From the NCBI GenBank assembly GCA_964417965.1, contig CAYQJX010000010.1:318-64317 (forward strand): a stretch of 64,000 nucleotides of DNA, in the 5' to 3' direction. Below, in pieces: positions 9,012-30,000 of the stretch. The stretch is from an uncultured Elusimicrobiaceae bacterium (GTDB taxonomy: Bacteria; Elusimicrobiota; Elusimicrobia; Elusimicrobiales; UBA9959). The position numbers and the translations under genes were made by a program. The number at the start of each line of letters is the position of its first letter. Position 1 is the first letter of the stretch. Below the pieces are notes generated by a model. The model ran no database searches. It was given only the letters and a program-made list of their open reading frames with translations, and was not told where the DNA came from.

Positions 9012-9056
9012 CCAGATAATTGTGCCTTTTTTGCCGAGCTCCCGCAATTTGGGCGC

Positions 9057-9857: not shown

Positions 9858-9955
9858 TTTTCCTCCAGGAACCTGTGCCGCTCTTTAGAATACGTAAGGA
9901 CCTGCGCAACGGTTGCGTCAGTAATACTACCTCTTTCAGGTCAGAATCGGGGCCT

Positions 9956-15283: not shown

Positions 15284-15321
15284 ATTAGGTTCTTCTTTTC
15301 GGCTTTCTTGCCCCGGGCGTC

Positions 15322-15354
15322 AGCCGCGGCTGCGGTAATTCCGCCGCCGCGGCT
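15322..15354 (-). promoter_or_regulatory. GC stem-loop after precursor 1 (no U tract)
   Basis: AGCCGCGGC-T-GCGG / CCGC-C-GCCGCGGCT arms. Confidence 0.55.
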
Positions 15355-15368
15355 TCCCCAGGCTGCAC

Positions 15369-15668
15369 TTAGTCTTTGTACTGCACGTACTGATCATAAT
15401 AGTAGGTGTTCCCGTTACTATAACCAGCGCCGTTCGTATAGGTCCCGCTCCTGTCGCTGTTTTCCGCCGCAGCCGCCTGCAAACCGGTGACAGCAGAAGC
15501 CACATGTCCTATGGTGCTGAACTTGGGCCCCTGTACTGCGGCCGTAGCCGCATGCGCCGCCGGCACGAAAGCCCCGATGAGCTGAAGACCCATGCCCACC
15601 CCTACCGAAGCTTTCGCCATCCGTTTAAGCGCCTCGCGCCGCGAAACCCTTCCGTCTTTAACTTCCAT
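15369..15668 (-). CDS. Putative RiPP precursor 1: Tat-type signal peptide and Tyr/Asn-rich C-terminal core
   Basis: AAGGAGG RBS; SRREALK twin-Arg motif, h-region and AHA cleavage site; core GTYTNGAGYSNGNTYYYDQYVQYKD; first gene of the rSAM operon. Confidence 0.75.
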   Translation of the reverse strand: MEVKDGRVSRREALKRMAKASVGVGMGLQLIGAFVPAAHAATAAVQGPKFSTIGHVASAVTGLQAAAAENSDRSGTYTNGAGYSNGNTYYYDQYVQYKD

Positions 15669-15722
15669 TTTCTCCTCCTTACTGCCTTTTCGGAAGCCGA
15701 TGCCCCCGATCGCATCTCTCGA

Positions 15723-15738
15723 AGCAATTATAATGCCA
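15723..15738 (-). promoter_or_regulatory. Sigma-54 (-24/-12) promoter of precursor 1
   Basis: TGGCATTATAATTGCT on the minus strand, GG-N10-GC spacing. Confidence 0.8.
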
Positions 15739-15790
15739 CCCCTGAGAAACCGCTTAAAGGGCCCTTCCCCTGGGGTTAGGGACGACGGAT

Positions 15791-15826
15791 ATTCTCATTT
15801 AAGACCGCTTATTTTCATTTGAAAAT
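15791..15826. promoter_or_regulatory. Tandem palindromic activator-binding sites (candidate UAS)
   Basis: ATTCTCATTTAAGACC (15791) and ATTTTCATTTGAAAAT (15811), starts 20 bp apart. Confidence 0.65.
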
Positions 15827-15831
15827 GGCAA

Positions 15832-15851
15832 CCGCCGGGGAAGCCCGGCGG
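15832..15851 (-). terminator. Probable terminator hairpin
   Basis: CCGCCGGG-GAAG-CCCGGCGG downstream of the 15873-16400 gene. Confidence 0.45.
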
Positions 15852-15872
15852 CTGCGATAGCGGGAGGTGTTA

Positions 15873-16400
15873 TTATTTAGCCGCTTCGACCGTAACTTCA
15901 ATGCGGTTCTTCGGTTCGTCCAGGATAAGGGTGCTTTTCCCGAGCAGGAGCCGCGTCGCGGCCTGGAAACTCACGAACGCAACCTGTGCGCCCGCCCCTG
16001 GCACAAGGAGAGGTCCCTGCAGTTCGAACTGGGATTCAAGGATAACACAATTCCTGTCCTGCGGATCCGTTAAAGGCTTGAACCTGGCCTTGCTCATATA
16101 GCGTTTCATGTCGTACTTACGCTTACCGTCGACTTCTCCCAGGTCCACATTGGTCTCCCCGCTGGAGGAGAACTCGGCGTCCGCCCTGTCCACAGCCGTC
16201 AGGCTGCCGGAACTCTTCAGGATCTCCGTACTTATTTTGTAGGTTATCCTGTAATTGTCTACGCCGTACCTTACCATCTGTACCGGCCGATTATCCGCGC
16301 CCTCGCCCATTTTCGGACCCTTCTCGGCGGCATTGCCCTGGCCCGCCAAGGCAAGCGCCATCACGCCGAAAAGCGCGGCCACTATCATTCTTTTACCCAT
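15873..16400 (-). CDS. Secreted hypothetical protein
   Basis: Signal peptide MGKRMIVAALFGVMALALAGQGNA after a GGAG RBS; preceded by a sigma-54-type promoter. Confidence 0.65.
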   Translation of the reverse strand: MGKRMIVAALFGVMALALAGQGNAAEKGPKMGEGADNRPVQMVRYGVDNYRITYKISTEILKSSGSLTAVDRADAEFSSSGETNVDLGEVDGKRKYDMKRYMSKARFKPLTDPQDRNCVILESQFELQGPLLVPGAGAQVAFVSFQAATRLLLGKSTLILDEPKNRIEVTVEAAK

Positions 16401-16464
16401 TTTCTTGTCCTCCCGTTTATCAGACCTGACTTTGAAAACAATTTTAACGCTTTGCAAAAGGGGG

Positions 16465-16480
16465 AGCATTTTCCATGCCA
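16465..16480 (-). promoter_or_regulatory. Sigma-54-type promoter
   Basis: TGGCATGGAAAATGCT on the minus strand (GG-N10-GC). Confidence 0.6.
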
Positions 16481-16509
16481 GCAGGATAGCCCGGCAATGC
16501 TATTTCCAT

Positions 16510-16594
16510 ATGGAAATAAAAAAAGCGGGCTTACTGCCCGCTTTCGTGGTTTCTGGGTAGCTCCGGGGGGTCAGGCCCAGGGCGGTTCTTTGCC
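16510..16594 (-). repeat. Imperfect direct repeat, copy A: kinase 3' end plus terminator
   Basis: Aligns with 22141-22221; includes the hairpin AAAGCGGGC-TTACT-GCCCGCTTT. Confidence 0.8.
16571..16594 (-). pseudogene. Orphan 3' remnant of a hybrid kinase gene (GKEPPWA-stop)
   Basis: 24 bp identical to 22198-22221; no kinase ORF upstream of it. Confidence 0.7.
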
Positions 16595-16661
16595 CGCGCC
16601 TTTGTGCCCGGTGAAGTCACCAACCTGCATGATATTTACGGGCTTGCGGCCCGTCAGTGCC

Positions 16662-18440
16662 CTAGCTCATATATTTGCTGCTGGATTCCCAGAGCTTGCG
16701 GTAGTACGGCAGTCCGGCCAACAGCTCCTCATGGCTTCCCTCTCCCGCGATGTTGCCATTGCGCAGGACAACGACACGCTCGGCTAATTTTATCGCGCCA
16801 AGCCGGTGCGTGATGATGACGGCCGTGTGCCCCTTCTTAAGTTCCATGAAGTCCTGATATATGCGGTCTTCCTCAAACGGATCTATCGCGGCCGTGGGTT
16901 CGTCCAGCACGATCAGTTGATGTCCCCTGTAATACGCCCTGGCGATGGACAGGCGCTGCCATTCACCGCGGGATAATTCGGTACCATCGAATTCTTTACT
17001 GAGCAATGTCTCCAGACCCCGGTCCAGCCGTTTAAGGTCGACGTGGAAATCCGCGGCAGCCAGCGCGGATCGCACCCGCTTGTCGGAACGGTCCTGCTCA
17101 TTCGAGAACGCGCTGATCCTGACGTTGTCCCCCAGCGTGAGCTGGTACCGCTGGAAATCCTGAAAAACGCACGACACGTTACCGTAAAGGTCGTCTTTCA
17201 CGATATCTTTAAGAGCGATGCCGCCCGCGAGGACCTCGCCTTCCCCGGGTGCGTACAAGCCGAGCAGCAGCTTGGACAGCGTGGTTTTTCCGGACCCGTT
17301 CTCCCCTACGACGGCAACGGTCTCGCCAGCACGGAGGATCAACGAGATGCGGCTTAAAGCCGGCGTGGATGCGCCCGGGTACGTAAAACCGACCTCTTTC
17401 ATGACAAGGTCTTTCCTATCTCCGCAGCGCAGTTCACCGTACTTCTGCTCCTGCATTTCGAAAAAGGAGAAATACTTTTCCAGTCGGCCGGCGCTGACGG
17501 AAAGCTCTCCGAGCCTGCTGTCGAAAACTTCCTCCATCATCGCGAACATCTCCATGGTAGCCGCCAGGATGGCCGAGAACGCACCTATGGAGATGCTGCC
17601 CTTGATCAGCAGCGAGATCAGGAACACCAGGATGCTCATATACCCGGCCAGCGAGAACGCCTTGGCGGCGGTCTCCACGCCCTGGCTTTTCAGGTCGGCC
17701 CTGTATTTAAGCTGCTGGATCTTCTTGAAGGTCAGGTCGTAAAGCAAGAGGAAGAAGCCACTGGCGCCCAAAGCCCGCGTCTCCTTCAGGTATGTCCGGG
17801 ATACCAGGCATTCCTTGTAGTGCTCTTCTTTCCGGCGCAGCGCGACGGACTGGTCTTCAAGCCGGGTGTAGTAGCGGGAGCGCAGGAGATGTGAGGCCAG
17901 GACCGGGACGAAAACAAGGGGCAGTATCAACGGCAGCAGCGGCTGTACGCGGTACAGGTAAGCTCCCATGAAACCGAAATAGGGGATATAGAGGCACAGG
18001 ATATCCATGAGTACATGGACCAATTTGCGCACGTCGGCTGCTCCCCGGTAGGCTTGGCTGATCCGGTCCAGCACGTCCGGATCCTCGAACCCGGCTGCCG
18101 GCAGCCTGGCGGCTTTCTGGTTTAAGAGCTCGGTCATTTTCTGACCGCTCTTGCCGGCATAGAATTCACCGTAAAAGTTGGCGACACCGTCCACAGCTTC
18201 GTCCAGCACCTTTATAACGGCGAACACACAGAGGTACCACAGCACCGACGAGAATGGGACGCGGCCTGCGGCCAGCGCGACGACCTGGTCGAAGAACTTC
18301 TGTAGCCAAACCGTGGTAACGACCAGCATGACGGCGTCCAGGAACGTGAACGCGTACTCTATGACGAAATGCCGGGGCGAGACGCGGAACACCTGCGGGA
18401 TAGCCCTGAGGGCCTGAAGCAGGAAATGCGGCAGGGTCAT
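16662..18440 (-). CDS. ABC exporter, TMD-NBD subunit B
   Basis: GENGSGKTT Walker A, LSRGEWQR signature, LDEPT Walker B; start at 18440 overlaps the upstream stop. Confidence 0.88.
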   Translation of the reverse strand: MTLPHFLLQALRAIPQVFRVSPRHFVIEYAFTFLDAVMLVVTTVWLQKFFDQVVALAAGRVPFSSVLWYLCVFAVIKVLDEAVDGVANFYGEFYAGKSGQKMTELLNQKAARLPAAGFEDPDVLDRISQAYRGAADVRKLVHVLMDILCLYIPYFGFMGAYLYRVQPLLPLILPLVFVPVLASHLLRSRYYTRLEDQSVALRRKEEHYKECLVSRTYLKETRALGASGFFLLLYDLTFKKIQQLKYRADLKSQGVETAAKAFSLAGYMSILVFLISLLIKGSISIGAFSAILAATMEMFAMMEEVFDSRLGELSVSAGRLEKYFSFFEMQEQKYGELRCGDRKDLVMKEVGFTYPGASTPALSRISLILRAGETVAVVGENGSGKTTLSKLLLGLYAPGEGEVLAGGIALKDIVKDDLYGNVSCVFQDFQRYQLTLGDNVRISAFSNEQDRSDKRVRSALAAADFHVDLKRLDRGLETLLSKEFDGTELSRGEWQRLSIARAYYRGHQLIVLDEPTAAIDPFEEDRIYQDFMELKKGHTAVIITHRLGAIKLAERVVVLRNGNIAGEGSHEELLAGLPYYRKLWESSSKYMS

Positions 18441-20236
18441 GCGGGCACCTCCCGGTGCTCCTTGTACCATTTTGCCTGTGCCGTGAACATCTCCGCGTAA
18501 TAACCGTTCCGGGCAAGAAGGATGTCGTGCGGGCCTTGTTCGATGATCCGGCCTTCGTTCATGACTATTATTTCGTCGGCCAGCCGTGCCGCCGCCAGGC
18601 GGTGCGTGATGTATAAAGTGGTCATCCGCCCGTTAAGGCCGGACCTTCTGACGGTCTCGTAGAGGTTATTCTCGGCTAGCACATCAAGGGCCGCCGCCGG
18701 TTCGTCGAACACAAAAAGCCTGGCTTCCCGGCCGAAACTCCTGGCCAGTGCCAGCAGTTGCCATTGCCCGCCGGACAGGTCCGTGCTGTCCGGCTCCAGT
18801 TTACCCAAAGCGGTATCGGCGCCTTTTGGGAACGAACGGACTTTCACGGCCAGGCCCATCTGCTCCAGCAGCGCGTCTATCTTTCCCGCGGGAAGAGCGG
18901 GATTTCCCAATCTCAGTTGTTCCGTTACCGTCAGTTGATACTTGGCGTATTCCTGGTAAAGCACCGAGAAGTACGCTTTCCTTTCCGCGGCGGTGAAGGA
19001 GTTTATATCCCTGTTGTTCAGCAGTATCCTGCCAGTATAGTTCCGGTAGAGGCCCGTCAGCAACTTTATCACGGTCGATTTCCCGCAACCGTTCCTGCCC
19101 ACGAAGGCATACTGCTTGCCGGGAAGGATGGTAAGCGAAAAATCGCGGAGAATCTCCCTTTCGGACCCGGGATACTTAAAGCTAACGCGGTCGAAAACCA
19201 AGCTTTCCAGCGGCATGCCGCAAATGCGCTCATCCGGGGCCAGGTCGCTGCCGGGCACCTCCGAAAGCCGCTGCGCGCACTCCAAGTCTTCCAGGTACAG
19301 CCGGTTGCCGGTGTAGTCTTTGAGCAGTCCCGAAAGTTGCCAGGACAAGGTATGGATAAGCGCCGAAAGGGAGATCACCAGGCTTATAAAGACGCCGGCC
19401 GTCATCCTGTTCTCCTTTACGAGCAGCAGCAAAAGCAGGGAAACAGCTACGAGCAGCAGCGTGAAGACCGCGCTTACGCTCTTTGAGCGGAGAAAGATCT
19501 TCCTGTCCGCCTTAAAATCCAGCTCTATTCTCCGGTCCGTCTCCTCGCCCCAGAATTTGCCTATCCTGTCGCCAAAGCCGAACAGCGTCCTCTCCGAGGC
19601 CGCTTCCCTGGAAGACAGCAGGGACCTGAAATACTTGGCCTTCCTCGCGTGGGGAGCTATCTGCGCACCGGCTTCGTACGCCTCGGTCCCGCTCTTCTTG
19701 GCGATCATGACCACCGGAAAGGCCAGCAGCAGGCACGCGACGGCGGCCGGAACGGAGGAGTGGCCTATAATGGCGATAAGCCCCAGGACGCTGAGGATAA
19801 TCGCGGCCAGGTCCAGCAGATTAGTGAAACCGCGCTCTATCGAGCCGGGAAGGTCTTCGCCTACGCGCTCAAGCAGGTCGTAGGTCTCGTCGTTCTCGAT
19901 ATGCTCGTAGGAAAGACGGTTGAGCTTTGTGACAAGCTGCGGTTTCAGCTTGTTTTCAAGACGCATGTTGAAGCTGAGCTCCGCGAGCCGGGCCGCGGCC
20001 TGGAGCAGATAGCCGGCCATTAATACGGCAAAAAGCCCCGCCAGCGGAAAAAAGGCGGCGGACAGGCTTTGGGCGGAGATAACTCCGGGCAATACGTCAA
20101 GCAGGCCGGCGATGGCCAGCGTCTGCAGCACAGGCAGGGCGGCCTGCGCGGTGCGGAGGAGCAGCAGGCCCGCGGTTAACGGCCTGCTGCAATGGAAAGA
20201 TATGGCGATGTACCTTAGGTTCTTGAGAGTATTCAT
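18437..20236 (-). CDS. ABC exporter, TMD-NBD subunit A
   Basis: GRNGCGKST, LSGGQWQ, FDEPAA; N-terminal TM domain with no C39 peptidase domain. Confidence 0.88.
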   Translation of the reverse strand: MNTLKNLRYIAISFHCSRPLTAGLLLLRTAQAALPVLQTLAIAGLLDVLPGVISAQSLSAAFFPLAGLFAVLMAGYLLQAAARLAELSFNMRLENKLKPQLVTKLNRLSYEHIENDETYDLLERVGEDLPGSIERGFTNLLDLAAIILSVLGLIAIIGHSSVPAAVACLLLAFPVVMIAKKSGTEAYEAGAQIAPHARKAKYFRSLLSSREAASERTLFGFGDRIGKFWGEETDRRIELDFKADRKIFLRSKSVSAVFTLLLVAVSLLLLLLVKENRMTAGVFISLVISLSALIHTLSWQLSGLLKDYTGNRLYLEDLECAQRLSEVPGSDLAPDERICGMPLESLVFDRVSFKYPGSEREILRDFSLTILPGKQYAFVGRNGCGKSTVIKLLTGLYRNYTGRILLNNRDINSFTAAERKAYFSVLYQEYAKYQLTVTEQLRLGNPALPAGKIDALLEQMGLAVKVRSFPKGADTALGKLEPDSTDLSGGQWQLLALARSFGREARLFVFDEPAAALDVLAENNLYETVRRSGLNGRMTTLYITHRLAAARLADEIIVMNEGRIIEQGPHDILLARNGYYAEMFTAQAKWYKEHREVPA

Positions 20237-20287
20237 GTTGCTTTCGCCGCGGCCGTATTACGGCCATTTAACCGCTGCAGCGGCAGA

Positions 20288-21370
20288 TTAAAGGCAGCGG
20301 TCGGCCCGTGTTTTAAACTTGGTCCCTTCTCCGGTAGTCCCGCCTTTTCTCATGACCCGGTATTCCGATTCGGCCGTTCTTTTAGAATCGGAAGAGCAGG
20401 CGAGCGGCGAACCGTCCTCCAGCAACGCGTGCCCGGGACAATGGACGCACTTTTCCTTCAGGCCGCAGGTGGAACACTGCTGCAGATCGCTTTTCTTCAA
20501 CGACAGCAGATATTTCCGCTCGGGGGAATCATACCAGATGGTCTTCAGATCGCTCGAGAAGACATCCCCCAGCTTATGGCGGAAACTGATGCAGGGGAAA
20601 ACCTCACCGCTTGCATCTATGAAGATGGTGTTCTTGAGCGACGGGCAGATGCTCTCGTCCTGCCTCACTTTCTCCAGCAGCGCTTCGGCCTCCGGATTGC
20701 TGCTGGCCAGTATCAGGGCAATGGCGTCATCCATCCCGTCATCGTCCATGCGCAGGTCCCGCACTGACGTGTCGCCGTTCATTTTTGAGGAAATGGTAGG
20801 ACAGGGATTGAAATCGAAACCGTTTTCGGCACAGAATCCGCCCACTTCGCGGAAATCATGCCGATTGGTCTTAAGTATCGGAGTTTTTATCTCTACGGCG
20901 ATCCCATGCTTCTTCAGCAAAGCCACATTATCAAGGGCCTTCCGCAGAGACCCCTTGACTCCGGTAATGGCCTCGTGGACCTCATGGTTCAGGGAAAAGA
21001 TGGTCGTACCGAATGAGGAAATGTGAAGGTCCGCGAGCTCTTTGGCTATGCTCTCATTAATAAGCGTCGCGTTGCTCAGCAGATTGACGCTGAACCCCAG
21101 TGACCGGGCGTCCCTTACAGTGCCCATGATGTTCTTTCTTAGGAAGATCTCGCCTCCGGTCAGATTAAGGTACAACGCCCCAAGTTCCCTCAATTCCCGC
21201 AGAAGTCTCGCGACCACTGCGTCATCAAGCCCTTCAGAAACGCGTTCGGGAATATAGCAATGGGTGCATTTCAGGCTGCACCTGGTCAGAAGCTCAATGG
21301 TAACATTGAGCGGGATATCGGCTTTCTGGGTTATTGTCTGCAGCGAAACGGCCTTGATATTTTCTTTCAT
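20288..21370 (-). CDS. Radical SAM/SPASM peptide maturase (PqqE-like)
   Basis: CSLKCTHC; LTGGE; CPSL...GEVFPC...CSTCGLKEKCVHCPG...C. Confidence 0.9.
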   Translation of the reverse strand: MKENIKAVSLQTITQKADIPLNVTIELLTRCSLKCTHCYIPERVSEGLDDAVVARLLRELRELGALYLNLTGGEIFLRKNIMGTVRDARSLGFSVNLLSNATLINESIAKELADLHISSFGTTIFSLNHEVHEAITGVKGSLRKALDNVALLKKHGIAVEIKTPILKTNRHDFREVGGFCAENGFDFNPCPTISSKMNGDTSVRDLRMDDDGMDDAIALILASSNPEAEALLEKVRQDESICPSLKNTIFIDASGEVFPCISFRHKLGDVFSSDLKTIWYDSPERKYLLSLKKSDLQQCSTCGLKEKCVHCPGHALLEDGSPLACSSDSKRTAESEYRVMRKGGTTGEGTKFKTRADRCL

Positions 21371-21642
21371 TTTGCCAGCTCCCCGGAAGCAGCGATGAAC
21401 CCCTTCTCGACCAGGAGTTCCGTAAGTCCGGTCATATCAGCATCCAGCACTCTTTCCTCCACGTCATAGCTTTTTAGCAGCTCGGCCCTGATGGCCTCAT
21501 AGTCATGGAGCTTCCCGATAAGCAGCCAGAAATCTTTCCCGACATTGTCGAGGGCGTAGATGAACGAGTTCCGCTCATCGCGGAGATACAGCGTGTCCAG
21601 GATCACCTGCCACGCCACGTTAAACGTATATGTCAAACGCAT
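21367..21642 (-). CDS. PqqD/RRE peptide chaperone
   Basis: 91 aa; IYALDNVGKDFWLLI...ELLKSYDVEERVLDADMTGLTELLVEKGFI; ATGA overlap with the rSAM gene. Confidence 0.85.
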   Translation of the reverse strand: MRLTYTFNVAWQVILDTLYLRDERNSFIYALDNVGKDFWLLIGKLHDYEAIRAELLKSYDVEERVLDADMTGLTELLVEKGFIAASGELAK

Positions 21643-21808
21643 CCGGCTGTCCCCTTTTAGCGAAAGTGTAAGGTAAAAAAGCCTGAAACCCACCTGCTTC
21701 GAATAAATCCCGGAAAAGATCTAACCCGAACGTATTATATTCTTAAATGGCCGGACTGGTCCAGAACATGCCGGAGGCAGCCGGGAACCGAAACCGCAAT
21801 ATAGGCGC

Positions 21809-21855
21809 CAGGACAACGGCAGCGGACACTAACTACTCGTCCCTGCCGTTGCCTG
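21809..21855 (-). promoter_or_regulatory. Stem-loop after precursor 2
   Basis: CAGG-A-CAACGGCAG-C-GGAC pairs with GTCC-CTGCCGTTG-CCTG. Confidence 0.6.
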
Positions 21856-21867
21856 ACCCGGGACCGT

Positions 21868-21981
21868 TTAGAGCACCTCGCCGGATTTGCCGTTGCAGGC
21901 ATTGCCGTGACCGCAGCGCGTGGCGGTTTTGGCGCAATTGGAAACAACGGTCAGAACGGGCGTCGAGTAAGTTTTTTTCAT
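21868..21981 (-). CDS. Putative RiPP precursor 2 (37 aa, 3 Cys)
   Basis: AGGAG RBS; MKKTYSTPVLTVVSNCAKTATRCGHGNACNGKSGEVL with a YxxPxL RRE-binding leader motif; directly upstream of the PqqD and rSAM genes. Confidence 0.82.
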   Translation of the reverse strand: MKKTYSTPVLTVVSNCAKTATRCGHGNACNGKSGEVL

Positions 21982-22040
21982 GATAATCTCCTGGTAATTT
22001 TGTTCGTTTTCTGCGTTACAAGTTGTTACGCCCAATACGG

Positions 22041-22056
22041 AGCAATTTATATGCCA
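22041..22056 (-). promoter_or_regulatory. Sigma-54 promoter of precursor 2
   Basis: TGGCATATAAATTGCT on the minus strand. Confidence 0.8.
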
Positions 22057-22111
22057 GGGCGCCTTGTTACAGAAGCGGCCAAGTGTTTTGCTTACGGATG
22101 CCGCAAAATAT

Positions 22112-22147
22112 ATTCTCATTTGAAAATATTGTTTTCAAATATGAATA
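22112..22147. promoter_or_regulatory. Palindromic activator site (candidate UAS) plus a weaker second site
   Basis: ATTCTCATTTGAAAAT at 22112-22127, identical to 28617-28632; degenerate GTTTTCAAATATGAAT from 22131. Confidence 0.65.
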
Positions 22148-22221
22148 GAAAAGCAGGGCAATGGCCCGCTTTCCTAGTTTTGGATAGCTCCGGGAGGTCA
22201 GGCCCAGGGCGGTTCTTTGCC
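22141..22221 (-). repeat. Imperfect direct repeat, copy B: kinase 2 3' end plus terminator
   Basis: Aligns with 16510-16594. Confidence 0.8.
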
Positions 22222-23880
22222 GGTTACTTTAAGCCAGGGGAGATGAGAGAATTTTTCGGGGCCGTGGCCGGTGGCCATGGTGAGGTCGGTAAAACCTTTC
22301 GCATGCAGGGCCTGGGCCGTGTCTTCGCCCTTAACGTCGCCGCCCAGCTCGGAGTCTATATAGATTGGCGTATCTTTGGGCAGGGCTTCAGTGCCGGCGA
22401 TAAGTTCTTCCGGGGTTTTATGCGCCTTGAACTCCACGCCTGCGGCTTTGGCGGCCATCCGCCAGTTCATGTGCACCAACAGGTCGTCGTCCAGCAGCAC
22501 CGCGCGCGCAGGCGCGGTTTTAGCCGCGGCCGCCGGCAGTTCCAGCGTAACGGCGGTGCCTTTGCCCGGCTCGGATTCCATCCTGAAGCTGCCGCCCCAG
22601 GCCTCCACCGTTTTGCGGGCGTGGTAAACGCCCAGGCCGGTGCCGCCGGCCTTGCCGTGCGTTTCGCCCTTCTGCCCCAGCCTGGCCAGGATCTCCGGCT
22701 GTATGCCTTTGCCATTGTCCTTTACGGTCAGCAGCACTTTGTGGTCCAGGGCGGACAGGGAGACCGAGACGGTACCCGGCCCGCTGAAGGCTTCTACCGA
22801 GTTATTGATAAGGTTTGAGACCAGCCGCTGGAATTCGGTGGGCTCCACTGAAGCTTTGATCTCCGCAGCGCCGGCGGCGAAATCGATACTGACGCCGGGC
22901 TTATCCTTGTGCTGCAGCCGCTTCTCCGCGACCACCTGCTCCACAAGACCGCCAAGAGCGAGCACCGCGGTTTTGGGTTTAGCCGGCCCGGAGGACGGCG
23001 CGCGGTAACGGGTTAGCAGTTCGTCGGCTATGCCCTGCATGCGCGCCACCGCCCCGTCTATCATGTTGCGCTGCTCCTGCGGGAGCTCCAGCCCTTTAGC
23101 CGCCGCATCCAGCGCCGCCAGCGGCGACCGTATATCGTGCGCCACCTGCGCGGCCAGGTCTGAGGTGGCCTTGGAGATAGCCAGCTCGCTCTCCAGCCGC
23201 GCCGCCTTGCCGAGCGCGTCGCTCATGCGCCCCGTCATCTGCGCGAAAGGCGTGCCTATGGTGCCGGACGGCAGGCCGGCTATATGTTTTTTTATGGACT
23301 CCCGGATGACCTCGCTGTGCCGGGAGTCGGCCACGGCGTTGATCTCGTTGACCGAGCGCTCTATAGCGAGCAGCGTCTTCATTGCACCCAGATTGGAGAT
23401 AATCAGCAGCCCCAAGAAAAAGAAGACCACGGTAATGAACAGCACGTAGTTCTGGCCGAACACCGCGGCGTTTACGTCCAGCAGGTCTATCACGTACTCA
23501 AGCCGGCCCAGCTCAGCGCCGTTGGAGACGAACGGCACGTTATGCGTTATCTGCGCGCGCGGCCGGTCGTAAAGATTGCCTACTATCGCCTCTTTGAAGA
23601 TCCACCTGCTGCCCTCGAACACTACCGGGTGGAAAGCAATGCGTTTTATGTTTTCGTTCTTTATGCGCCACATTATGCGCTGCGTCTCAAAAACGTCGCC
23701 GTCCAGGAAGGCCTTCTCAAAGTAGGCCGCGTTCTGCCGCATGGCGGTCAGCAACTTGTCATCAGCCACCCGCACAGCGGAAAACGCCGAGAAAGCCTGC
23801 CAAAAAGCGACGAAGACCAGCACCGACACAGCATAGTGCCGCCAGTTATAAGCGAATATCCTGAGAAATATTTTTACCAT
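22198..23880 (-). CDS. Membrane hybrid histidine kinase (HisKA-HATPase-REC), copy 2
   Basis: VAHDIRSPL, NLINNSVEA, DNGKG, GTGLG; receiver LDDD...IDS...ATG...GKEPPWA; C-terminal half closely similar to copy 1. Confidence 0.9.
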   Translation of the reverse strand: MVKIFLRIFAYNWRHYAVSVLVFVAFWQAFSAFSAVRVADDKLLTAMRQNAAYFEKAFLDGDVFETQRIMWRIKNENIKRIAFHPVVFEGSRWIFKEAIVGNLYDRPRAQITHNVPFVSNGAELGRLEYVIDLLDVNAAVFGQNYVLFITVVFFFLGLLIISNLGAMKTLLAIERSVNEINAVADSRHSEVIRESIKKHIAGLPSGTIGTPFAQMTGRMSDALGKAARLESELAISKATSDLAAQVAHDIRSPLAALDAAAKGLELPQEQRNMIDGAVARMQGIADELLTRYRAPSSGPAKPKTAVLALGGLVEQVVAEKRLQHKDKPGVSIDFAAGAAEIKASVEPTEFQRLVSNLINNSVEAFSGPGTVSVSLSALDHKVLLTVKDNGKGIQPEILARLGQKGETHGKAGGTGLGVYHARKTVEAWGGSFRMESEPGKGTAVTLELPAAAAKTAPARAVLLDDDLLVHMNWRMAAKAAGVEFKAHKTPEELIAGTEALPKDTPIYIDSELGGDVKGEDTAQALHAKGFTDLTMATGHGPEKFSHLPWLKVTGKEPPWA

Positions 23881-25292
23881 CTAAAATCAGCCACCTCTGG
23901 ATATTCCGAGAACCCCCGACCGACATCTAAATTTTTAATATTTTGTGGATAATAAAGCTTTGTACTGCTTTGATACAACGGCAAGACAACAGCCTCCCGC
24001 TGCACCCCGCTCGCCAACGCCATCGCTGCCTTCACCTTATCGGCCCTACCGTCCAGGGAGAGTAATTCCTTGTACATTTTCCTGAGATCGGCAGGAACAC
24101 TATCTATCACAGCAGCCTCACCCAGATAGTACTCAAAAAACGGCGCATATTCCGGCCTGACCGTATCAGATACAATCACGATCAGCCCATAAGACTTCAA
24201 CTTAGAGCGATTATGCAATTCGCTTACCAGATCCTTTGGCACGTAGTTCTTAATAATTAGTTTGAGCCCAGTACGATCGAAGAGTCGTTTAGAGAACTCT
24301 CTAAGCTGCACAGCATTGTTTTGGTATAGATTCGCTAAAACAATTTGTTTGTTCTTTAAATAGTGCTTTTTCTCATTAGTGCATGCCGTACTACTTCTGC
24401 CCGCCTCCCCCCCTGGAATGCCTAAAGGCAGCAGCCACTTCACATCCAGTAACCCCTTCCTTTCCGGAAGAAAAGCTTCCCTAAATTCTCCCGCGTCGAC
24501 ACAATTATATACAGCATCGCGAAAACGGCTATCTGGATTATTGATGGCTAATCCCACGACACGCAGTTCGATGTTGAAAAATCCGGCAAACTCTTTCTGG
24601 ATCCATTCCGGCTGCTGGAATGTGGACAGTTTGTTGAAGTCACAGATACTCCTATCGTTAAGCCGCACGTCCCCCGGGCCGGAATACTCATGAAAGATTA
24701 CTTTGTTGTATCCATTTCGGACCGGCTTTTTTCTTTCCAGTGTGATTTGCTTACTCTTCACGCTTTTCACGAAAAAGGGGCCCAGCCCGGATTCGTATCC
24801 GGTTTCAACTTTTATGCTGGGCGCATTATCAAATTTTGATAAAAAGTCCAGATACCCATGCTTCGGTTTCTGGAACCTTATAGAAACACAGCCTTCGTTT
24901 TTGTTTATAGTGGCCCCTGGCTCATATTTCTTTGTGACTTCGGAAATATATGAGAGGAAATACTGGAAAGAAAATCCGTTTTTCGCGTCAAAGCGCAGGG
25001 TCGTGTCGGGACAAAACAGGTACTCAGTAGATAAGTTGTTGCGTCCCCAGCGTTTTAATATGCGTGACGCATAGTTCTGGCCGTCATCTTGGCGAAAAAC
25101 CGGTTCGTGCGTCTGCCGGAGGACATAGAAGGTGGAGGTTTCAGATTCGTTCTTAACGGACACTTCCGCAGGCAAGGCTCCGATCAGCACCTTCCAAACA
25201 TCCTTCTCAGAGGACGTGCCGGCAGCGCACTCCCCGGCAAAGATCGGACAAAAGAGTACCCCTAATATCCAGGCCGCGTGATTTGTAGACAT
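23874..25292 (-). CDS. Family-5-like solute-binding protein, copy 2
   Basis: Signal peptide; HEPVFR...ASRIL, GLGPFFV and VLPLYQ segments; overlaps the kinase start; AT-rich. Confidence 0.65.
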   Translation of the reverse strand: MSTNHAAWILGVLFCPIFAGECAAGTSSEKDVWKVLIGALPAEVSVKNESETSTFYVLRQTHEPVFRQDDGQNYASRILKRWGRNNLSTEYLFCPDTTLRFDAKNGFSFQYFLSYISEVTKKYEPGATINKNEGCVSIRFQKPKHGYLDFLSKFDNAPSIKVETGYESGLGPFFVKSVKSKQITLERKKPVRNGYNKVIFHEYSGPGDVRLNDRSICDFNKLSTFQQPEWIQKEFAGFFNIELRVVGLAINNPDSRFRDAVYNCVDAGEFREAFLPERKGLLDVKWLLPLGIPGGEAGRSSTACTNEKKHYLKNKQIVLANLYQNNAVQLREFSKRLFDRTGLKLIIKNYVPKDLVSELHNRSKLKSYGLIVIVSDTVRPEYAPFFEYYLGEAAVIDSVPADLRKMYKELLSLDGRADKVKAAMALASGVQREAVVLPLYQSSTKLYYPQNIKNLDVGRGFSEYPEVADFRW

Positions 25293-26008
25293 TCAGAATG
25301 GAAACCTATTTTTTTCAGGAATTTATTGGATGCGACATTGAACGGGTTGGCGCCTGTAGCCACAACATCCACAACCTGCGACTTTAACCAAGAGACCATC
25401 CGGCTTTTCACCTCGCACCTCTCATCCCCGGTCAACCCCGGGTCTATCCACACCCAGGTTATCCAATCAATATCCGTCCCGTCAAAGTATTTCGCCTTGT
25501 TCAATGGCAGCAATGCAATAGGATGACCGCTTTTACCGAGACAAAACACTTTTGCTTCCGGGATATGCTGTTCCGCGTTCGTTTGAATGATCTTAAGGTA
25601 CTCACTCTCAAGATATTGTTTCCACGGATACCCGAGTTTTTTAGCCCATGGACCACCGAAGTAGTTTTTCTCCGTAGACAAATAGAGTTCCTGCACCTCC
25701 GCTGAGCTCTTAAACGGATAGTCATCGATTCCAGACGGCGTTGCGCATTGGTTGGGGACAGTTAGCCCATCTCGTTGCGTCCGGTAGATCAACCTGGCTA
25801 AATATTTACCAGAAAGGTTCTTGTTCAGCGCGGCAAAGTCTTCGGGGATCTCATGCTTAAAATTCACAAGAAGTGTCGGGGTTTCCAAAGGCCAAGGAAT
25901 ATTATCCACAAGAGCGTTAGTAATCACGGCTGCATCATCCGCTTCGCACACCAGCAGCCTGTTCGTTTTGCTCACAACCTTTATTTTTTCCGGCATATCA
26001 TGACCCAT
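25262..26008 (-). CDS. Putative GNAT-fold protein
   Basis: C-terminal ITWVWIDP...NPFNVASNKFLKKIGF resembles GNAT motifs A/B; start may be 25996. Confidence 0.5.
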   Translation of the reverse strand: MGHDMPEKIKVVSKTNRLLVCEADDAAVITNALVDNIPWPLETPTLLVNFKHEIPEDFAALNKNLSGKYLARLIYRTQRDGLTVPNQCATPSGIDDYPFKSSAEVQELYLSTEKNYFGGPWAKKLGYPWKQYLESEYLKIIQTNAEQHIPEAKVFCLGKSGHPIALLPLNKAKYFDGTDIDWITWVWIDPGLTGDERCEVKSRMVSWLKSQVVDVVATGANPFNVASNKFLKKIGFHSECLQITRPGY

Positions 26009-26876
26009 AAATTGTTTTTTTATCCGTTGTCAGTTTCCTGAAAACTTTTTCACATAACACGCATGGAGCCGAATCCTCCGGGAGGAACGGGGCCATATTT
26101 AAACCAAATTTTTTGATAATCCCCCTGAAAGACAAACTTCGCATCATACGGTAAAACTCACTGTCCAAGTGAGCTTTAAGCGTTGGATGACAAATGTTTT
26201 GGATATTAGTATCAAAAACCAGAGAAGAGCAACAAATACTAAATCCTTTTTCCGGCAAGCAGGTTATTACTTTTTTATTAGGGCACCTGCGAGACAAGAC
26301 ATTGCGGTCAAAACTGGGATGCTGGTAAAAGATCCTGTTACTCCGGGCCCGCCCTACTGGCAACACCTTTTGCATCCCTATCTGAAAGTCTCCGATGTCC
26401 TTCAACTTATTAAGCAGCAGCATATCCATCGGCGACTGAACAGATGCCACCACTCCGAACCCGATATTCAAACTGCGACAGGCATTATGCAGGTTCCGGA
26501 TGTAGGAGAATGGCAAGAACTTCTTATGAAATTTATCATAAGACAACTGCACAGAATCCAATTTTTTAAACGAGGAGAGAAGTGTGACCGCGGAGCTCTT
26601 TGTTTTAGCAAAATGCCCGTTAGTGGTTATTTTGACTTTGAATTTATTCAATTTCCCGAGTTTCGAAAGGAACGCATTTGTACGGTCGAGATATAGGGTG
26701 GGCTCTCCCCCCAGAAAATGCAACGTTTTCATGCCATGCGATTCAACCGCATCCAGCAGAAGGCTCTCTTCTCGCGGATTAAGCGCCGCACTTGCATCAG
26801 GAGAACAACAGTGCGCACATGCAAAGTTGCATTTAAATCCGAACATGATGCCGATCTTGGATATTCTTTCAGTCAT
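25998..26876 (-). CDS. Radical SAM enzyme resembling the YydG/EpeE peptide epimerase
   Basis: CNFACAHCC, TTNGHFA, LSYDKFH, PVGRA, RCP...ICCSSL.F and CVLC follow the YydG/EpeE motif order as recalled from memory. Confidence 0.72.
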   Translation of the reverse strand: MTERISKIGIMFGFKCNFACAHCCSPDASAALNPREESLLLDAVESHGMKTLHFLGGEPTLYLDRTNAFLSKLGKLNKFKVKITTNGHFAKTKSSAVTLLSSFKKLDSVQLSYDKFHKKFLPFSYIRNLHNACRSLNIGFGVVASVQSPMDMLLLNKLKDIGDFQIGMQKVLPVGRARSNRIFYQHPSFDRNVLSRRCPNKKVITCLPEKGFSICCSSLVFDTNIQNICHPTLKAHLDSEFYRMMRSLSFRGIIKKFGLNMAPFLPEDSAPCVLCEKVFRKLTTDKKTIYGS

Positions 26877-26888
26877 TTTCCACAAAAA

Positions 26889-26927
26889 TTAACGCCCGAG
26901 TTACCTTTGGTAAAGCCCGGGCGTTAA
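26889..26927 (-). promoter_or_regulatory. Stem-loop after candidate precursor 3
   Basis: TTAACGCCCG...CGGGCGTTAA outer stem with inner TTACC/GGTAA. Confidence 0.55.
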
Positions 26928-26962
26928 CCCATTTGAATATCGAAAAGAACTTTACAGAAAGA

Positions 26963-27175
26963 TCACCCGACCTTGGTGGGCTTGGGGTCCCCATGGACAA
27001 GAACCTGGGCGCACACATTATTTAACATGCGCTGCTTCGCAGGATTCTGGATTACCTGCATAAGAGAATTCTTTTGTTTAGCCGGGAGGGTTCGGACATA
27101 CTGAACCGCCTGTATTGCAGAAAATAAGCCGACCGACACCAAAAAAGCCGCTATTATTTTGTCTTTCGTTGTCAT
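26963..27175 (-). CDS. Candidate precursor 3 (70 aa, Sec-type signal peptide)
   Basis: AAGGGG RBS; hydrophobic N-terminus ending AIQA; internal PAKQ repeat; first gene before the rSAM. Confidence 0.55.
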   Translation of the reverse strand: MTTKDKIIAAFLVSVGLFSAIQAVQYVRTLPAKQKNSLMQVIQNPAKQRMLNNVCAQVLVHGDPKPTKVG

Positions 27176-27236
27176 TTTGTTTTCCCCTTAACCCCTATAT
27201 TCTGCCATTTTTGCGGGTTTTGCGCAATTTGCCGAT

Positions 27237-27273
27237 AAAAAAAGGGAAAGCAAAGTGACTTTTTGCTTTCCCT
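27237..27273 (-). terminator. Intrinsic terminator of the rpoN-like gene
   Basis: AGGGAAAGCAAA / TTTGCTTTCCCT stem with a T tract on the minus strand. Confidence 0.75.
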
Positions 27274-27412
27274 GGATACATCCGATTAAGGTCGGATCGT
27301 GGATACTCTGGGGCCAATCCCCCAAATTACAAGGAAGACTACACGGATAGTGTACATCGCGGGGCTTGCGCGCGTAAGGGCATTAGTGCCCACGCGGCGC
27401 TAGGCCCTTGGG

Positions 27413-28465
27413 CTACCGCGCGCCGGCGGCGGCGAGGCTGAGGTCTTTGCGGTACTGGGCGATGGAGCGGCGGCTCAGGTCCACGCCGTGGCGGGAGCGC
27501 AGCTCCGCGCAGAGCCGGGTGTCGCTGAGCTGCGGCTGTTCGGCGGCTATGGAGTAGAGGCGGTCCAGGTTGACCTTCTTGGAGCTGGGCAGCAGCACCT
27601 CCATGGGCGCCTCCATGCCCCAGGGCATCTGTATCGATTTATTGGAGACCAGGCGGTTGAGCACGCTGGCGTCCACCTCCAGGTTCTTGGCCAGCGTCTT
27701 CTGGGACAAGGGGCGGCGGCGGCTGGGGTCCCCGGTGGCCAGGTAGTCGGCCTGCACGCTGATTAGGATCTCCAGCGCGCGGTAAAGGGTGGTCTTGCGC
27801 TTGTCGGCGAACTCTATCTTTTTCAGCAGCTTCTCCACGCGCTTGCGCTCGGCGGGGTCCATACCGGGCAGCAGGGCGGCCAGCTTGTCGCCGTCCACCT
27901 TGTAGCGGCCTTTCCAGATCTCGCGATGAAAGAAGGCCAGCACGGGCTCGCCGTCGTCCAGCTCTATGCCGGCCACGGCGCTGAACACCTTGGCGGCGGG
28001 GGCCTCGGGCTTCGCCTCGAATTCGGCCTGGATGAAGGCCCGGTTGACGAAATCGCGCAGGCGTTCGGCGTCCTTAATTGTAATGTCGCATTCTTCGGCG
28101 CGCTCTATGTCGCTCATCACGGCGTCGCGCAGGAAGCAGGCCTCGAACTTCTCCTGGCCTATCCCCTGGATCAGCTTCACCAGGTCGCCAGTGCCGTCGG
28201 CCAGCTCGGGCAGGTCGCCGCTGGCCATATTGAGGCCGTAGCCGGCGTATTTGCGCGCGGCGTAGCGGGCGGCGGGAAATTCGCTCAGGTTGATGGCGCC
28301 GGAGGTCTTGAGCAGCTGGAACACGCGGCCGCCCTCCAGGTCCTTTATCATCTCCGCGAATTCTTCCTCGGGCATTTCGGCCATCTGGGCCATTTTAAGC
28401 GCGCCCAGCAGGGCGGCCGAAGTTCTTGCCCCGGTGGAGGCGGTGAGTTTAAAGCTGTGTTTCAT
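27413..28465 (-). CDS. rpoN: Short, divergent sigma-54 factor
   Basis: HTH PLSQKTLAKNLEVDASVLNRLVSNKSIQMPWG and RpoN-box-like SRRSIAQYRKDL; only 350 aa. Confidence 0.78.
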   Translation of the reverse strand: MKHSFKLTASTGARTSAALLGALKMAQMAEMPEEEFAEMIKDLEGGRVFQLLKTSGAINLSEFPAARYAARKYAGYGLNMASGDLPELADGTGDLVKLIQGIGQEKFEACFLRDAVMSDIERAEECDITIKDAERLRDFVNRAFIQAEFEAKPEAPAAKVFSAVAGIELDDGEPVLAFFHREIWKGRYKVDGDKLAALLPGMDPAERKRVEKLLKKIEFADKRKTTLYRALEILISVQADYLATGDPSRRRPLSQKTLAKNLEVDASVLNRLVSNKSIQMPWGMEAPMEVLLPSSKKVNLDRLYSIAAEQPQLSDTRLCAELRSRHGVDLSRRSIAQYRKDLSLAAAGAR

Positions 28466-28509
28466 AAAAAGCTCCCTATGCGCACATTATACCTGTTATT
28501 CAAGAACAG

Positions 28510-28525
28510 AACAATTTTAATGCCA
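28510..28525 (-). promoter_or_regulatory. Near-consensus sigma-54 promoter in front of the rpoN-like gene
   Basis: TGGCATTAAAATTGTT (-12 is GT rather than GC). Confidence 0.5.
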
Positions 28526-28596
28526 GCGCTGCGGACAGCAAACTCCGATTTGGCCCCCGAGCGCCGGAAGTTTGTATAATATAGATAGGGTTATAT

Positions 28597-28632
28597 ATTC
28601 TCATCCGAGAACTGCCATTCTCATTTGAAAAT
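28597..28632. promoter_or_regulatory. Tandem palindromic activator sites between rpoN and the activator gene
   Basis: ATTCTCATCCGAGAAC (28597) and ATTCTCATTTGAAAAT (28617), starts 20 bp apart as at 15791/15811. Confidence 0.68.
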
Positions 28633-28653
28633 CAAAGCGGCCCCTGGGGGAGC

Positions 28654-30000
28654 ATGGAAAAACTCAATATTTTCGTACTGGAAGACGACAAACTGGCCCA
28701 GAAGGTGATGGGCGCGCACCTGTCCCCCCACACAGTGGACATGGCGGCCGACCTGGACTCGGCCCTTAAAAAGCTGGACGCCGGCCGCTACGACATGGGC
28801 TTCTTCGACCTGATGCTGGGCGTGAACGACGACTATTCCGGCCTTAAGGCCATAGCCGCGGCCGCCAAAAAAGGCATCTACAGCGTGGTGGTCTCCAGCT
28901 CGGACTCGGACGAGATGATAGACAAGGCCTACGCCCTGGGCGCCTCTGATTTCTACGCCAAGGGCAACGAAGAGGCTAACGTGGAGGAGATCCTGCGCAA
29001 GTTCCTGCAGAACCGCAGGGCCGCGGCTTCCGACGATATCTTCACCTCCGCCTTCATCACCGAGGACCCCGAGACCCGCGCGGCGGCCACGGAAGCGCTT
29101 AAGTACGCGCCCACCGACCTCCCCATCCTTATCCTGGGCCCCTCCGGCACCGGCAAGACCTCGCTGGCCAACATCCTGCACGAACATTCCGGCCGCGAGG
29201 GCGCCTTTGTCTCCATCAACTGCTCCGCCTATACCGACGACCTGCTGGAGGCCGAGCTGTTCGGCCACAAGAAGGGCGCTTTCACCGGCGCGTCCGAGGC
29301 CCGCAAGGGCCGCCTGCTGGAAGCCCACCGCGGCACCCTGTTCCTCGACGAGATCGGCACCATGAGCCACAACATGCAGATGAAGCTGCTCAAGGCCATA
29401 GAGGAAAGGACCTTTTATCCCCTCGGCTCCGAGAAGCCCGAGCGGTCCGAGTTCCGCATCATCAGCGCCACGCTGGAGGACCCGCAGGCCCTCATCGCGC
29501 AGGGCAAGATGCGCTTCGACCTGTTCCAGCGCATCCACGGCTACACCATCAACCTCAAACCGCTGGCGCGGCGCCGCGCGGACATCTTCCCGCTGGTGCA
29601 CCATTTCACCAAGGGCGGCCGGCGGCTCTCTTTCAGCCCGGACGCCAAGGCCTTCATGCAGGACTACGCCTGGCCGGGCAATATCCGCGAGCTCAAGAAG
29701 TTCACGGACCTCGTGTCCGGCGGGCAGCAGGGGCGGGTGGACCTGGACACGGCAAAGCGGCATCTCAAGGGGCAGGCCCTGGCCGCGGGCGCGGGCTACG
29801 AGGATTCGCTCTACGCGCTGGCGCTGGCCGAAGGCCTGGACGCCGCGCTGGAGAAGGTGACCGGCGAGCTGGTAGGGCGCAGCCTCCGCGAGAACGGCGG
29901 CGTGCGCACCAAGACGCTGACCGACCTGAAGATCTCTACAAGGCTTTTATACGCCACCCTCAAAAAACTGGGGCTGGATACCGAAGGGGGAAAGAAATGA
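28654..30000 (+). CDS. NtrC-family sigma-54 enhancer-binding response regulator
   Basis: REC domain (EDD, FFDL, YAK); GPSGTGKT; [13 protein letters not shown]; LFLDEI; WPGNIREL; C-terminal HTH. Confidence 0.92.

Follow-up and report, generated by a model that had tools for sequence, protein, structure and literature searches.

Recurrent palindromes in Elusimicrobia as very probable enhancers of sigma-54 promoters and likely binding sites of an adjacent activator

A 64-kb stretch of DNA from an uncultured Elusimicrobiaceae bacterium, called here the window and analysed at its full length, raises the question of what function is served by a 16-bp palindrome, ATTYTCA-N2-TGARAAT, that recurs upstream of its sigma-54 promoters, and which protein recognizes it. 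One copy lies in front of a gene for a bacterial enhancer-binding protein (bEBP), whose neighbour is a gene for a short sigma-54 factor (referred to as rpoN). An earlier note on this DNA had proposed the palindromes as binding sites of this bEBP that would also provide its autoregulation. Our analysis indicates that the palindromes are, with high confidence, sigma-54 enhancers (upstream activating sequences, UAS), and that the adjacent bEBP is the likely protein to bind them. The evidence consists of sequence patterns and of their co-occurrence across related genomes, from which we infer binding and the regulatory steps.

Exact matches to ATTYTCANNTGARAAT, i.e. the palindrome given above, occur three times in the window, and none was obtained in 100 dinucleotide-preserving shuffles. 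They are ATTTTCATTTGAAAAT at 15811-15826 and two identical 16-mers, ATTCTCATTTGAAAAT, at 22112-22127 and 28617-28632 (palindromes are given here without a strand); the same three strong sites had been picked out in the earlier note. Sigma-54 promoters were located with a position weight matrix (PWM) derived from related promoters and scanned over the whole 64 kb. The only strong ones are P1 (TGGCATTATAATTGC, 15724-15738, minus strand, score 24.7), P2 (TGGCATATAAATTGC, 22042-22056, minus strand, score 31.0) and P3 (TGGCATTAAAATTGT, 28511-28525, minus strand, score 34.4), of which P3 precedes the short sigma-54 gene and is kept upstream of its orthologues; a single weak promoter was found at 16480. 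The centres of the strong palindromes lie 82, 65 and 101 bp from the GG of P1, P2 and P3, respectively, within the range of about 50-110 bp estimated before. Furthermore, each of the three promoters is preceded by a pair of sites, with centres 62-101 bp upstream of the GG and pair spacings of 20, 19 and 20 bp. At P1 the strong palindrome is the distal site and its partner, ATTCTCATTTAAGACC (15791-15806), has three mismatches and one good half-site only. At P2 the strong palindrome is proximal, and the distal site, GTTTTCAAATATGAAT (22131-22146), with three mismatches, is centred 84 bp from the GG. At P3 the strong palindrome is again distal and is accompanied by ATTCTCATCCGAGAAC (28597-28612), a site of the TTCTC-N6-GAGAA type with two mismatches. 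The partners at 15791 and 28597 had been noticed previously at this same 20-bp distance, and the one at 22131, 19 bp from its strong site, is an addition to them. In an alignment the 15791 partner corresponds to the proximal sites at P2 and P3, with which it has ATGAGAATAT in common. Matches with three mismatches are common by themselves (eight at up to three mismatches in the window versus 3.3 expected, which is not significant alone), thus the partner sites gain weight solely from the fixed spacing of 19-20 bp. The palindrome at 28617 ends 22 bp ahead of the bEBP start codon (ATG at 28654), so that its description as lying just ahead of the activator gene holds. It is kept in at least 30 orthologous intergenic regions, and a second site matching the 28597 partner is conserved in the orthologues as well.

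The same arrangement was found far beyond the window. The comparative set comprised 79 loci around relatives of the short sigma-54 together with the window, 1.30 Mb in total, and the expected counts were taken from second-order Markov simulations. At up to one mismatch the motif was found 76 times, against 0.8 expected, and promoters of the form TGGCAY-N5-TTGY 82 times, against 5.6 expected. For 46 promoters the motif was present within 230 bp upstream, where 0 were expected, and all of these motifs are placed at 64-119 bp, with clusters near 73, 93 and 113. When two mismatches were allowed, 55 of 81 sigma-54 promoters had the motif. Two sites are exactly 20 bp apart at 36 promoters and 19 bp apart at 8, which together make 44 of the 82. 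Within the motif, TTYTC-N6-GARAA forms the conserved core; T2, T3, T5 and C6, and likewise G11, A12, A14 and A15, each carry about 2 bits, and the centre is free. For 21 motif matches no strict promoter is present; in 10 of these cases a degenerate -24/-12 element follows 84-124 bp downstream, and another 6 matches are located just before the bEBP start codon. The motif-promoter distances also show a suggestive helical phasing (Rayleigh R of 0.33 at 10.2 bp and 0.49 at 21 bp, for sites that are not independent). Because orthologous regions and tandem pairs contribute to them, motif counts and phasing statistics do not represent independent events, and we do not lean on their p-values. The genes downstream of motif promoters in the relatives encode the short sigma-54, many Cys- or Gly-rich peptides of 30-45 amino acids and small secreted proteins.

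In distant relatives, a half-site CATTTTC was additionally observed upstream of sigma-54 promoters at other spacings, for instance as ATTTTCA-N14-TGAAAAT in locus L058 (L numbers denote loci of the comparative set); its positions are 17861 and 8260 in L058 and 1891 in L046. This half-site may predate the 16-bp dyad.

Both the form of the motif and its position bear on the question of which kind of element it is. Its half-site, TGAAAAT or TGAGAAT, is one or two bases away from the Fur half-site TGATAAT and belongs to an AT-rich site in a genome with 60% GC, and a box of the Fur family (Fur, Zur or PerR), mediating metal- or redox-responsive repression, had been named in the earlier note as the alternative. 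The Fur consensus is a 7-1-7 inverted repeat, TGATAAT-N-ATTATCA (19-bp GATAATGATAATCATTATC), whereas the element observed here is 7-2-7, ATTYTCA-NN-TGARAAT, with a 2-bp spacer, half-sites in the reverse order and A instead of T at half-site position 4. Moreover, the sites do not overlap sigma-70 -35/-10 elements but precede -24/-12 promoters by 64-119 bp, the motif follows the bEBP gene and not a Fur gene, and no iron-uptake gene is among the downstream genes, whose products are RpoN, secreted proteins, small peptides and radical-SAM maturases. The geometry, the far-upstream position and the non-iron targets together leave the Fur explanation exceedingly improbable. The A/T tracts of the AT-rich motif and its location upstream of sigma-54 promoters would also suit an architectural element, of the integration host factor (IHF)/HU type or based on A-tract curvature, that aids looping without being an activator site. 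IHF sites are common upstream of sigma-54 promoters, one example being IHF at psp (PMC3709507). Nevertheless, the motif has strict dyad symmetry and does not fit WATCAA-N4-TTR, and it takes the distal position of a UAS and not a place between UAS and promoter. No other conserved upstream block that could be the UAS instead was found in an alignment of 33 orthologous rpoN-bEBP intergenic regions or in the three control regions of the window. We therefore regard a purely architectural role as very improbable. Enhancers for bEBPs usually lie some 70-200 bp upstream of a -24/-12 promoter (GG-N10-GC) and consist of dyads that suit a dimeric HTH, mostly two or more of them on one helical face. An enhancer is suggested by the promoter distance, by the dyad symmetry and tandem arrangement of the sites, by the presence of an activator with GAFTGA and a helix-turn-helix (HTH), and by the co-occurrence of these parts across genomes.

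This activator is the only bEBP in the 64 kb. The gene (28654-30000, plus strand) encodes a protein of 448 amino acids for which profile searches and a conserved helix predict a receiver domain (REC), an AAA+ domain (Sigma54_activat) and a C-terminal HTH. The acidic pair E10-D12, D52 and K103 are present in the REC domain, and GAFTGA and the Walker motifs in the AAA+ domain (Sigma54_activat, E = 1e-55). The HTH was assigned because the profile alignments reach the HTH-bearing C-terminal ends of AtoC, NorR, PrpR and NtrX, and because the helix LKISTRLLY is conserved. No named equivalog of NCBIfam was matched, all scores being far under the cut-offs (e.g. 207 versus 559 bits for ntrC).

In almost all loci whose sequence extends far enough, an orthologue of the bEBP adjoins the short sigma-54 gene, divergently in the closer clade and upstream and co-directionally in the distant clade. 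In both gene orders the motif is located -37 to -43 bp from the bEBP start codon, usually with a second site of the TTCTC-N6-GAGAA type at -18/-19, and this fixed offset of about 40 bp from the ATG persists down to 46% sigma-54 identity. Furthermore, the presence of the motif varies together with the putative recognition helix. The motif accompanies the helix LKISTRLLY in almost every orthologue that has this helix, with few exceptions (e.g. L013 and L058, with no match in the 220 bp searched). The helix is counted as altered in 11 proteins, the variants being ISKRLLY (in two paralogues), ISNRLLY, IDTGLLY and IAAKVID, in addition to L046, in which the helix pattern was not found, and L041, whose LQISTRLLY carries one conservative change before the helix. 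The motif is absent in 9 of these 11; of the other two, L055 (ISNRLLY) has one match with three mismatches and L041 retains matches with two mismatches. Where sigma-54 paralogues are encoded with no bEBP next to them, the loci are likewise without the motif. Several genomes harbour two or three sigma-54 paralogues, some adjoined by a bEBP of their own (e.g. MGUL01: L049, L051 and L077) and others not. Together, the UAS distance, the tandem dyads, the tracking of the bEBP gene and the covariation with the helix lend comparative support to the original assignment of the palindromes to the 28654-30000 protein, and binding by this bEBP appears likely.

The only serious rival is that the motif is indeed a sigma-54 enhancer, but one bound by another bEBP or by an unlinked DNA-binding protein, with the adjacent bEBP gene being merely one of its targets. 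Paralogues of the bEBP at 54-58% identity are present in some related loci (L012, 1899-3212; L016, 11708-13027), and the motif is missing from 21-26 of about 82 sigma-54 promoters, which points to the probable existence of one or more further activators. What renders this rival unlikely is that the motif keeps its distance of about 40 bp from the start codon of this particular bEBP although the gene order changes, that such a site is missing from the paralogues whose helix differs, and that the neighbourhood contains no further conserved gene for a bEBP or a transcription factor.

The P3 sites are shared by two genes, and the intergenic region between them suggests how both could be regulated. 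In the alignment of the 33 orthologous regions the only conserved blocks are, in this order, the bEBP ATG, a site, a second site, TGTATAAT (read in the direction of the bEBP gene), a variable part, TGGCAT-N5-TTGC+TCT, TATAAT and the rpoN ATG. TGTATAAT (28573-28580, plus strand; conserved block TATTATACA in the rpoN orientation) is a candidate for the extended -10 element from which sigma-70 would transcribe the bEBP gene. Between it and the bEBP ATG lie both sites, the first of them 17 bp downstream. If TGTATAAT is the -10 element, the dyads would lie at about +10 to +45 of the bEBP mRNA, and their occupancy should repress the bEBP gene. The TATAAT (28486-28491, minus strand), which is at least 80% conserved in the alignment, is a putative sigma-70 -10 element for basal rpoN expression; it sits between P3 and the rpoN start, and no such element is present downstream of P1 or P2. 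With a basal sigma-70 promoter, the control of a sigma-54 gene by a sigma-54 promoter would no longer be circular. The TATAAT follows the -12 element of P3 by about 17 nt, and TTGCTCT, the -12 region, might at the same time be used as a -35 element, an arrangement which suggests that rpoN has overlapping sigma-70 and sigma-54 promoters. With the same two sites found between the conserved TGTATAAT and the bEBP start codon, the autoregulation envisaged in the earlier note gains support, and its likeliest sign would be repression of the bEBP gene together with activation of the sigma-54 gene. For the repressive effect of the P3 dyads on the bEBP gene, the layout lets us lean slightly in favour. 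In six of the related loci (L029, L030, L038, L039, L041 and L042) a gene for a Gly/aromatic-rich peptide of 31-33 amino acids (e.g. MGFFNIQYLWVFSYFGGVFGGGGFGGLPGRFNV) is inserted between the sigma-54 promoter and rpoN, with which it would be co-transcribed.

Several observations weigh against the assignment of the palindromes to this bEBP or against parts of it. The partner sites at 15791 and 22131 are poor matches, and much of the comparative signal originates from orthologous rpoN-bEBP intergenic regions. In the distant clade, where the helix is IDTGLLY or IAAKVID, there is no recognizable sigma-54 promoter within 21 kb and no replacement palindrome; the covariation is thus one of presence and absence only, and not compensatory. 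A Pfam search with the last 69 amino acids of the bEBP returned no HTH family, HTH_8 included, even at E = 10. The sign of the autoregulation depends on the putative sigma-70 -10 element. Finally, the sequencing runs that hold 27400-30000 are DNA metagenomes only, with no RNA among them.

In the mechanism that we propose, dimers of the bEBP would bind the dyad TTYTCA-N2-TGARAA through the C-terminal HTH. Once the receiver is phosphorylated, probably by the linked histidine kinase (22198-23880), two dyads 19-20 bp apart, i.e. at one to two helical turns, would nucleate the AAA+ hexamer. The hexamer would then loop to RNA polymerase containing the short sigma-54, held in the closed state on a -24/-12 promoter 60-120 bp downstream, and ATP hydrolysis would open the promoter. 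The predicted targets in the window are two operons for peptides resembling precursors of ribosomally synthesized and post-translationally modified peptides (RiPPs) with radical-SAM genes, under P1 and P2, and the sigma-54 gene under P3. Activation of P3 would form a positive loop for the sigma-54 gene on top of its probable basal sigma-70 promoter, while occupancy of the P3 sites would repress the sigma-70 transcription of the bEBP gene itself, in the manner of PspF.

The short sigma-54 (350 amino acids; 27413-28465, minus strand) has a C-terminal part of 134 residues that corresponds to Sigma54_DBD with the RpoN box (Pfam E = 1.7e-15, and a PDB profile); no sequence match was obtained for its N-terminal 216 residues, and the family is recognizable by sequence in its DNA-binding domain at the C-terminus only. 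Sigma-54 factors also comprise a core-binding domain and region I. For an AlphaFold2 model (predicted local distance difference test score 76.5) all significant PDB matches were sigma-54 chains, over 240-440 aligned columns but with a template modelling score of about 0.35. The protein shares 97% identity with that of Elusimicrobia bacterium GWB2_63_22, and relatives of about 350 amino acids are present throughout Elusimicrobia from groundwater, sediment and lakes, the window itself deriving from groundwater Elusimicrobia.

The P2 site pair adjoins the 3' end of the histidine kinase gene (22198-23880, minus strand), whose product is likely the sensor partner of the bEBP. In 9 related loci a motif match follows the orthologous kinase gene, mostly as a site pair with a sigma-54 promoter. 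Since the motif at the kinase end recurs in these loci, the junction is conserved and the cargo downstream of it varies. The closest relative, L001 (GWB2_63_22), lacks about 13 kb of the window (9056-22204) with both peptide operons, and its kinase 3' end is joined directly to sequence that matches the window from 9056 downwards; on this comparison, 9056-22204 is a strain-variable island. The window also contains a decayed copy of the P2 control module at 16466-16517 (minus strand), which comprises a weak promoter, TGGCATGGAAAATGC (16466-16480; PWM score 15.0), and 31 bp from it a perfect variant palindrome, ATTTCCATATGGAAAT (16502-16517). The segment 16466-16600 duplicates 22042-22225 (kinase 3' end, terminator, one palindrome and promoter) with about 50 bp deleted, and contains a fragment of about 45 bp of the kinase coding end. 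The palindrome at 16502 was considered as a fourth functional site and rejected: it belongs to a decayed duplicate of P2 from which about 50 bp are deleted, has only 31 bp to the weak promoter and is probably non-functional. The duplicate is probably a recombination scar of cassette insertion. Together, these observations suggest that cassettes are exchanged by recombination at the kinase junction.

Given at least one duplication of the unit that joins kinase 3' end, terminator, site and promoter (16466-16600 versus 22042-22225), and given that two of the 16-mers are identical, the three copies in the window might be leftovers of a duplicated promoter cassette without a selected function. However, alignment of the three control regions along the direction of transcription shows that they have nothing in common but the two dyads and the promoter, the spacers between sites and promoters being unrelated. 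Moreover, the motif is kept across species despite fully diverged intergenic spacers, and the decayed duplicate at 16466-16517 has lost the consensus and the spacing, as expected under relaxed selection. We give the explanation by leftover copies next to no weight.

With the palindromes read as enhancers for this bEBP, a wider picture can be drawn, which we offer tentatively as a possibility. Free-living Elusimicrobia may possess a self-contained, phylum-wide switch made of the short sigma-54, one dedicated REC-containing bEBP and a linked kinase. Its sigma factor would amplify its own synthesis from a sigma-54 promoter superimposed on a basal sigma-70 promoter, and two TTYTCA-N2-TGARAA dyads 20 bp apart together with TGGCAT-N5-TTGC would act as a "plug" carried by strain-variable cassettes of RiPP and radical-SAM genes that insert at the kinase 3' end. 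If this is true, one signal would fire a changing arsenal of modified peptides.

The layout has several counterparts among known systems. In E. coli, UAS sites shared by two genes activate the sigma-54 promoter of pspA and repress the sigma-70 transcription of pspF (PMC3709507). The pspF-pspA region is the closest in layout to the region described here, as in both a bEBP gene diverges from a sigma-54 promoter with tandem UAS dyads in the common intergenic region. Nevertheless, PspF lacks a receiver domain and is under the control of PspA, whereas the present bEBP combines a REC domain with a linked kinase; the divergent target here is the sigma-54 gene, the motif is unrelated and no IHF site was identified. 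In domain architecture and in its tandem dyads the system is closest to NtrC at glnAp2. NtrC combines REC, AAA+ and a Fis-type HTH, recognizes dyad sites, oligomerises on paired sites and binds in an autoregulatory manner. At glnAp2 the NtrC (NR-I) sites are arranged in tandem about 100-140 bp upstream of the -24/-12 promoter (PMC5159524). The two differ in the recognized site, of the TGCACC-N5-GGTGCA type for NtrC against TTYTCA-N2-TGARAA here, and in the regulon, which serves nitrogen assimilation in the one case and comprises peptide and radical-SAM genes in the other. Autoactivated rpoN genes are also known, such as that of nifU2-rpoN in Rhodobacter capsulatus. In prxS-rpoN2 of Mesorhizobium loti and Rhizobium etli, rpoN is driven by NifA and sigma-54, with an extra weak basal expression (PMC3538637). 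The similarity to these alpha-proteobacterial genes consists in a sigma-54 gene under a bEBP-dependent -24/-12 promoter with a weak basal promoter, the latter being putative in our case. In contrast, those genes are second, specialized copies under NifA, while the gene described here is phylum-wide, encodes a short sigma-54 of 350 amino acids and has a dedicated adjacent bEBP. Furthermore, bEBPs acting at sigma-54 promoters directly drive secondary-metabolite clusters in Myxococcus xanthus (PMC7910581). Those are polyketide synthase/non-ribosomal peptide synthetase clusters with Nla-type bEBPs, unlike the strain-variable small ribosomal peptides and radical-SAM maturases found here.

For Elusimicrobia, the sole statement on sigma-54 found in the searched literature is that of one survey, according to which Elusimicrobium minutum has no sigma-54 system (PMC3162934). 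The literature searched on Elusimicrobia with sigma-54 or RiPPs contained no description of the present system. To our knowledge, the recognition sequence proposed for the bEBP is unlike those of characterized bEBPs. Functionally, the element would be a textbook bEBP enhancer; the novelty would reside in the enhancer/bEBP pair, the self-activating short sigma-54 and the variable regulon of peptide cassettes. The pair offers a concrete and testable cis-element and regulator for a phylum with almost no genetics, and the layout adds a clear case in which a sigma-54 gene stands under an enhancer-dependent promoter of its own. The motif with its -24/-12 promoter could be used as a tag for co-regulated RiPP-like clusters in Elusimicrobia metagenomes, and the bEBP, sigma-54 and promoter parts could turn on silent clusters in a heterologous host.

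The two operons of the variable island differ in content. The first gene of the P1 operon (15369-15668, minus strand; "precursor 1") encodes a protein of 99 amino acids with a signal-like N-terminus and an aromatic-rich C-terminus. The operon also contains radical-SAM genes at 14282-15283 and 12358-13467, an open reading frame (ORF) without an assigned function and a GT9-like gene; the product of 12358-13467 is a DynA/DarE-like radical-SAM/SPASM maturase by scores that stay below the family cut-offs. The first gene after P2 (21868-21981, minus strand; "precursor 2") encodes a Cys-containing peptide of 37 amino acids, MKKTYSTPVLTVVSNCAKTATRCGHGNACNGKSGEVL, which resembles a RiPP precursor. Next come the genes for PqqD (21367-21693) and for a radical SAM/SPASM protein (20288-21370) and then, at 16662-20236, two for ABC exporters.

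Between the kinase gene and a riboswitch (23874-25292 and 25262-26885, both on the minus strand) there are genes for a secreted protein of 472 amino acids without a family match, an uncharacterized protein of 248 amino acids and a YydG-like radical-SAM protein scoring below the cut-off, which could form a further module for peptide modification or sensing; in the PWM scan of the window no sigma-54 promoter was found for the genes in 23874-26885. The riboswitch is a 2dG-II purine aptamer (Rfam RF03165, 85 bits; 27267-27337, minus strand) located directly downstream of the short sigma-54 gene. It precedes an ORF of 70 amino acids (26963-27175) that has no family match, and DNA resembling 27100-27390 recurs beside rpoN in many of the related loci.

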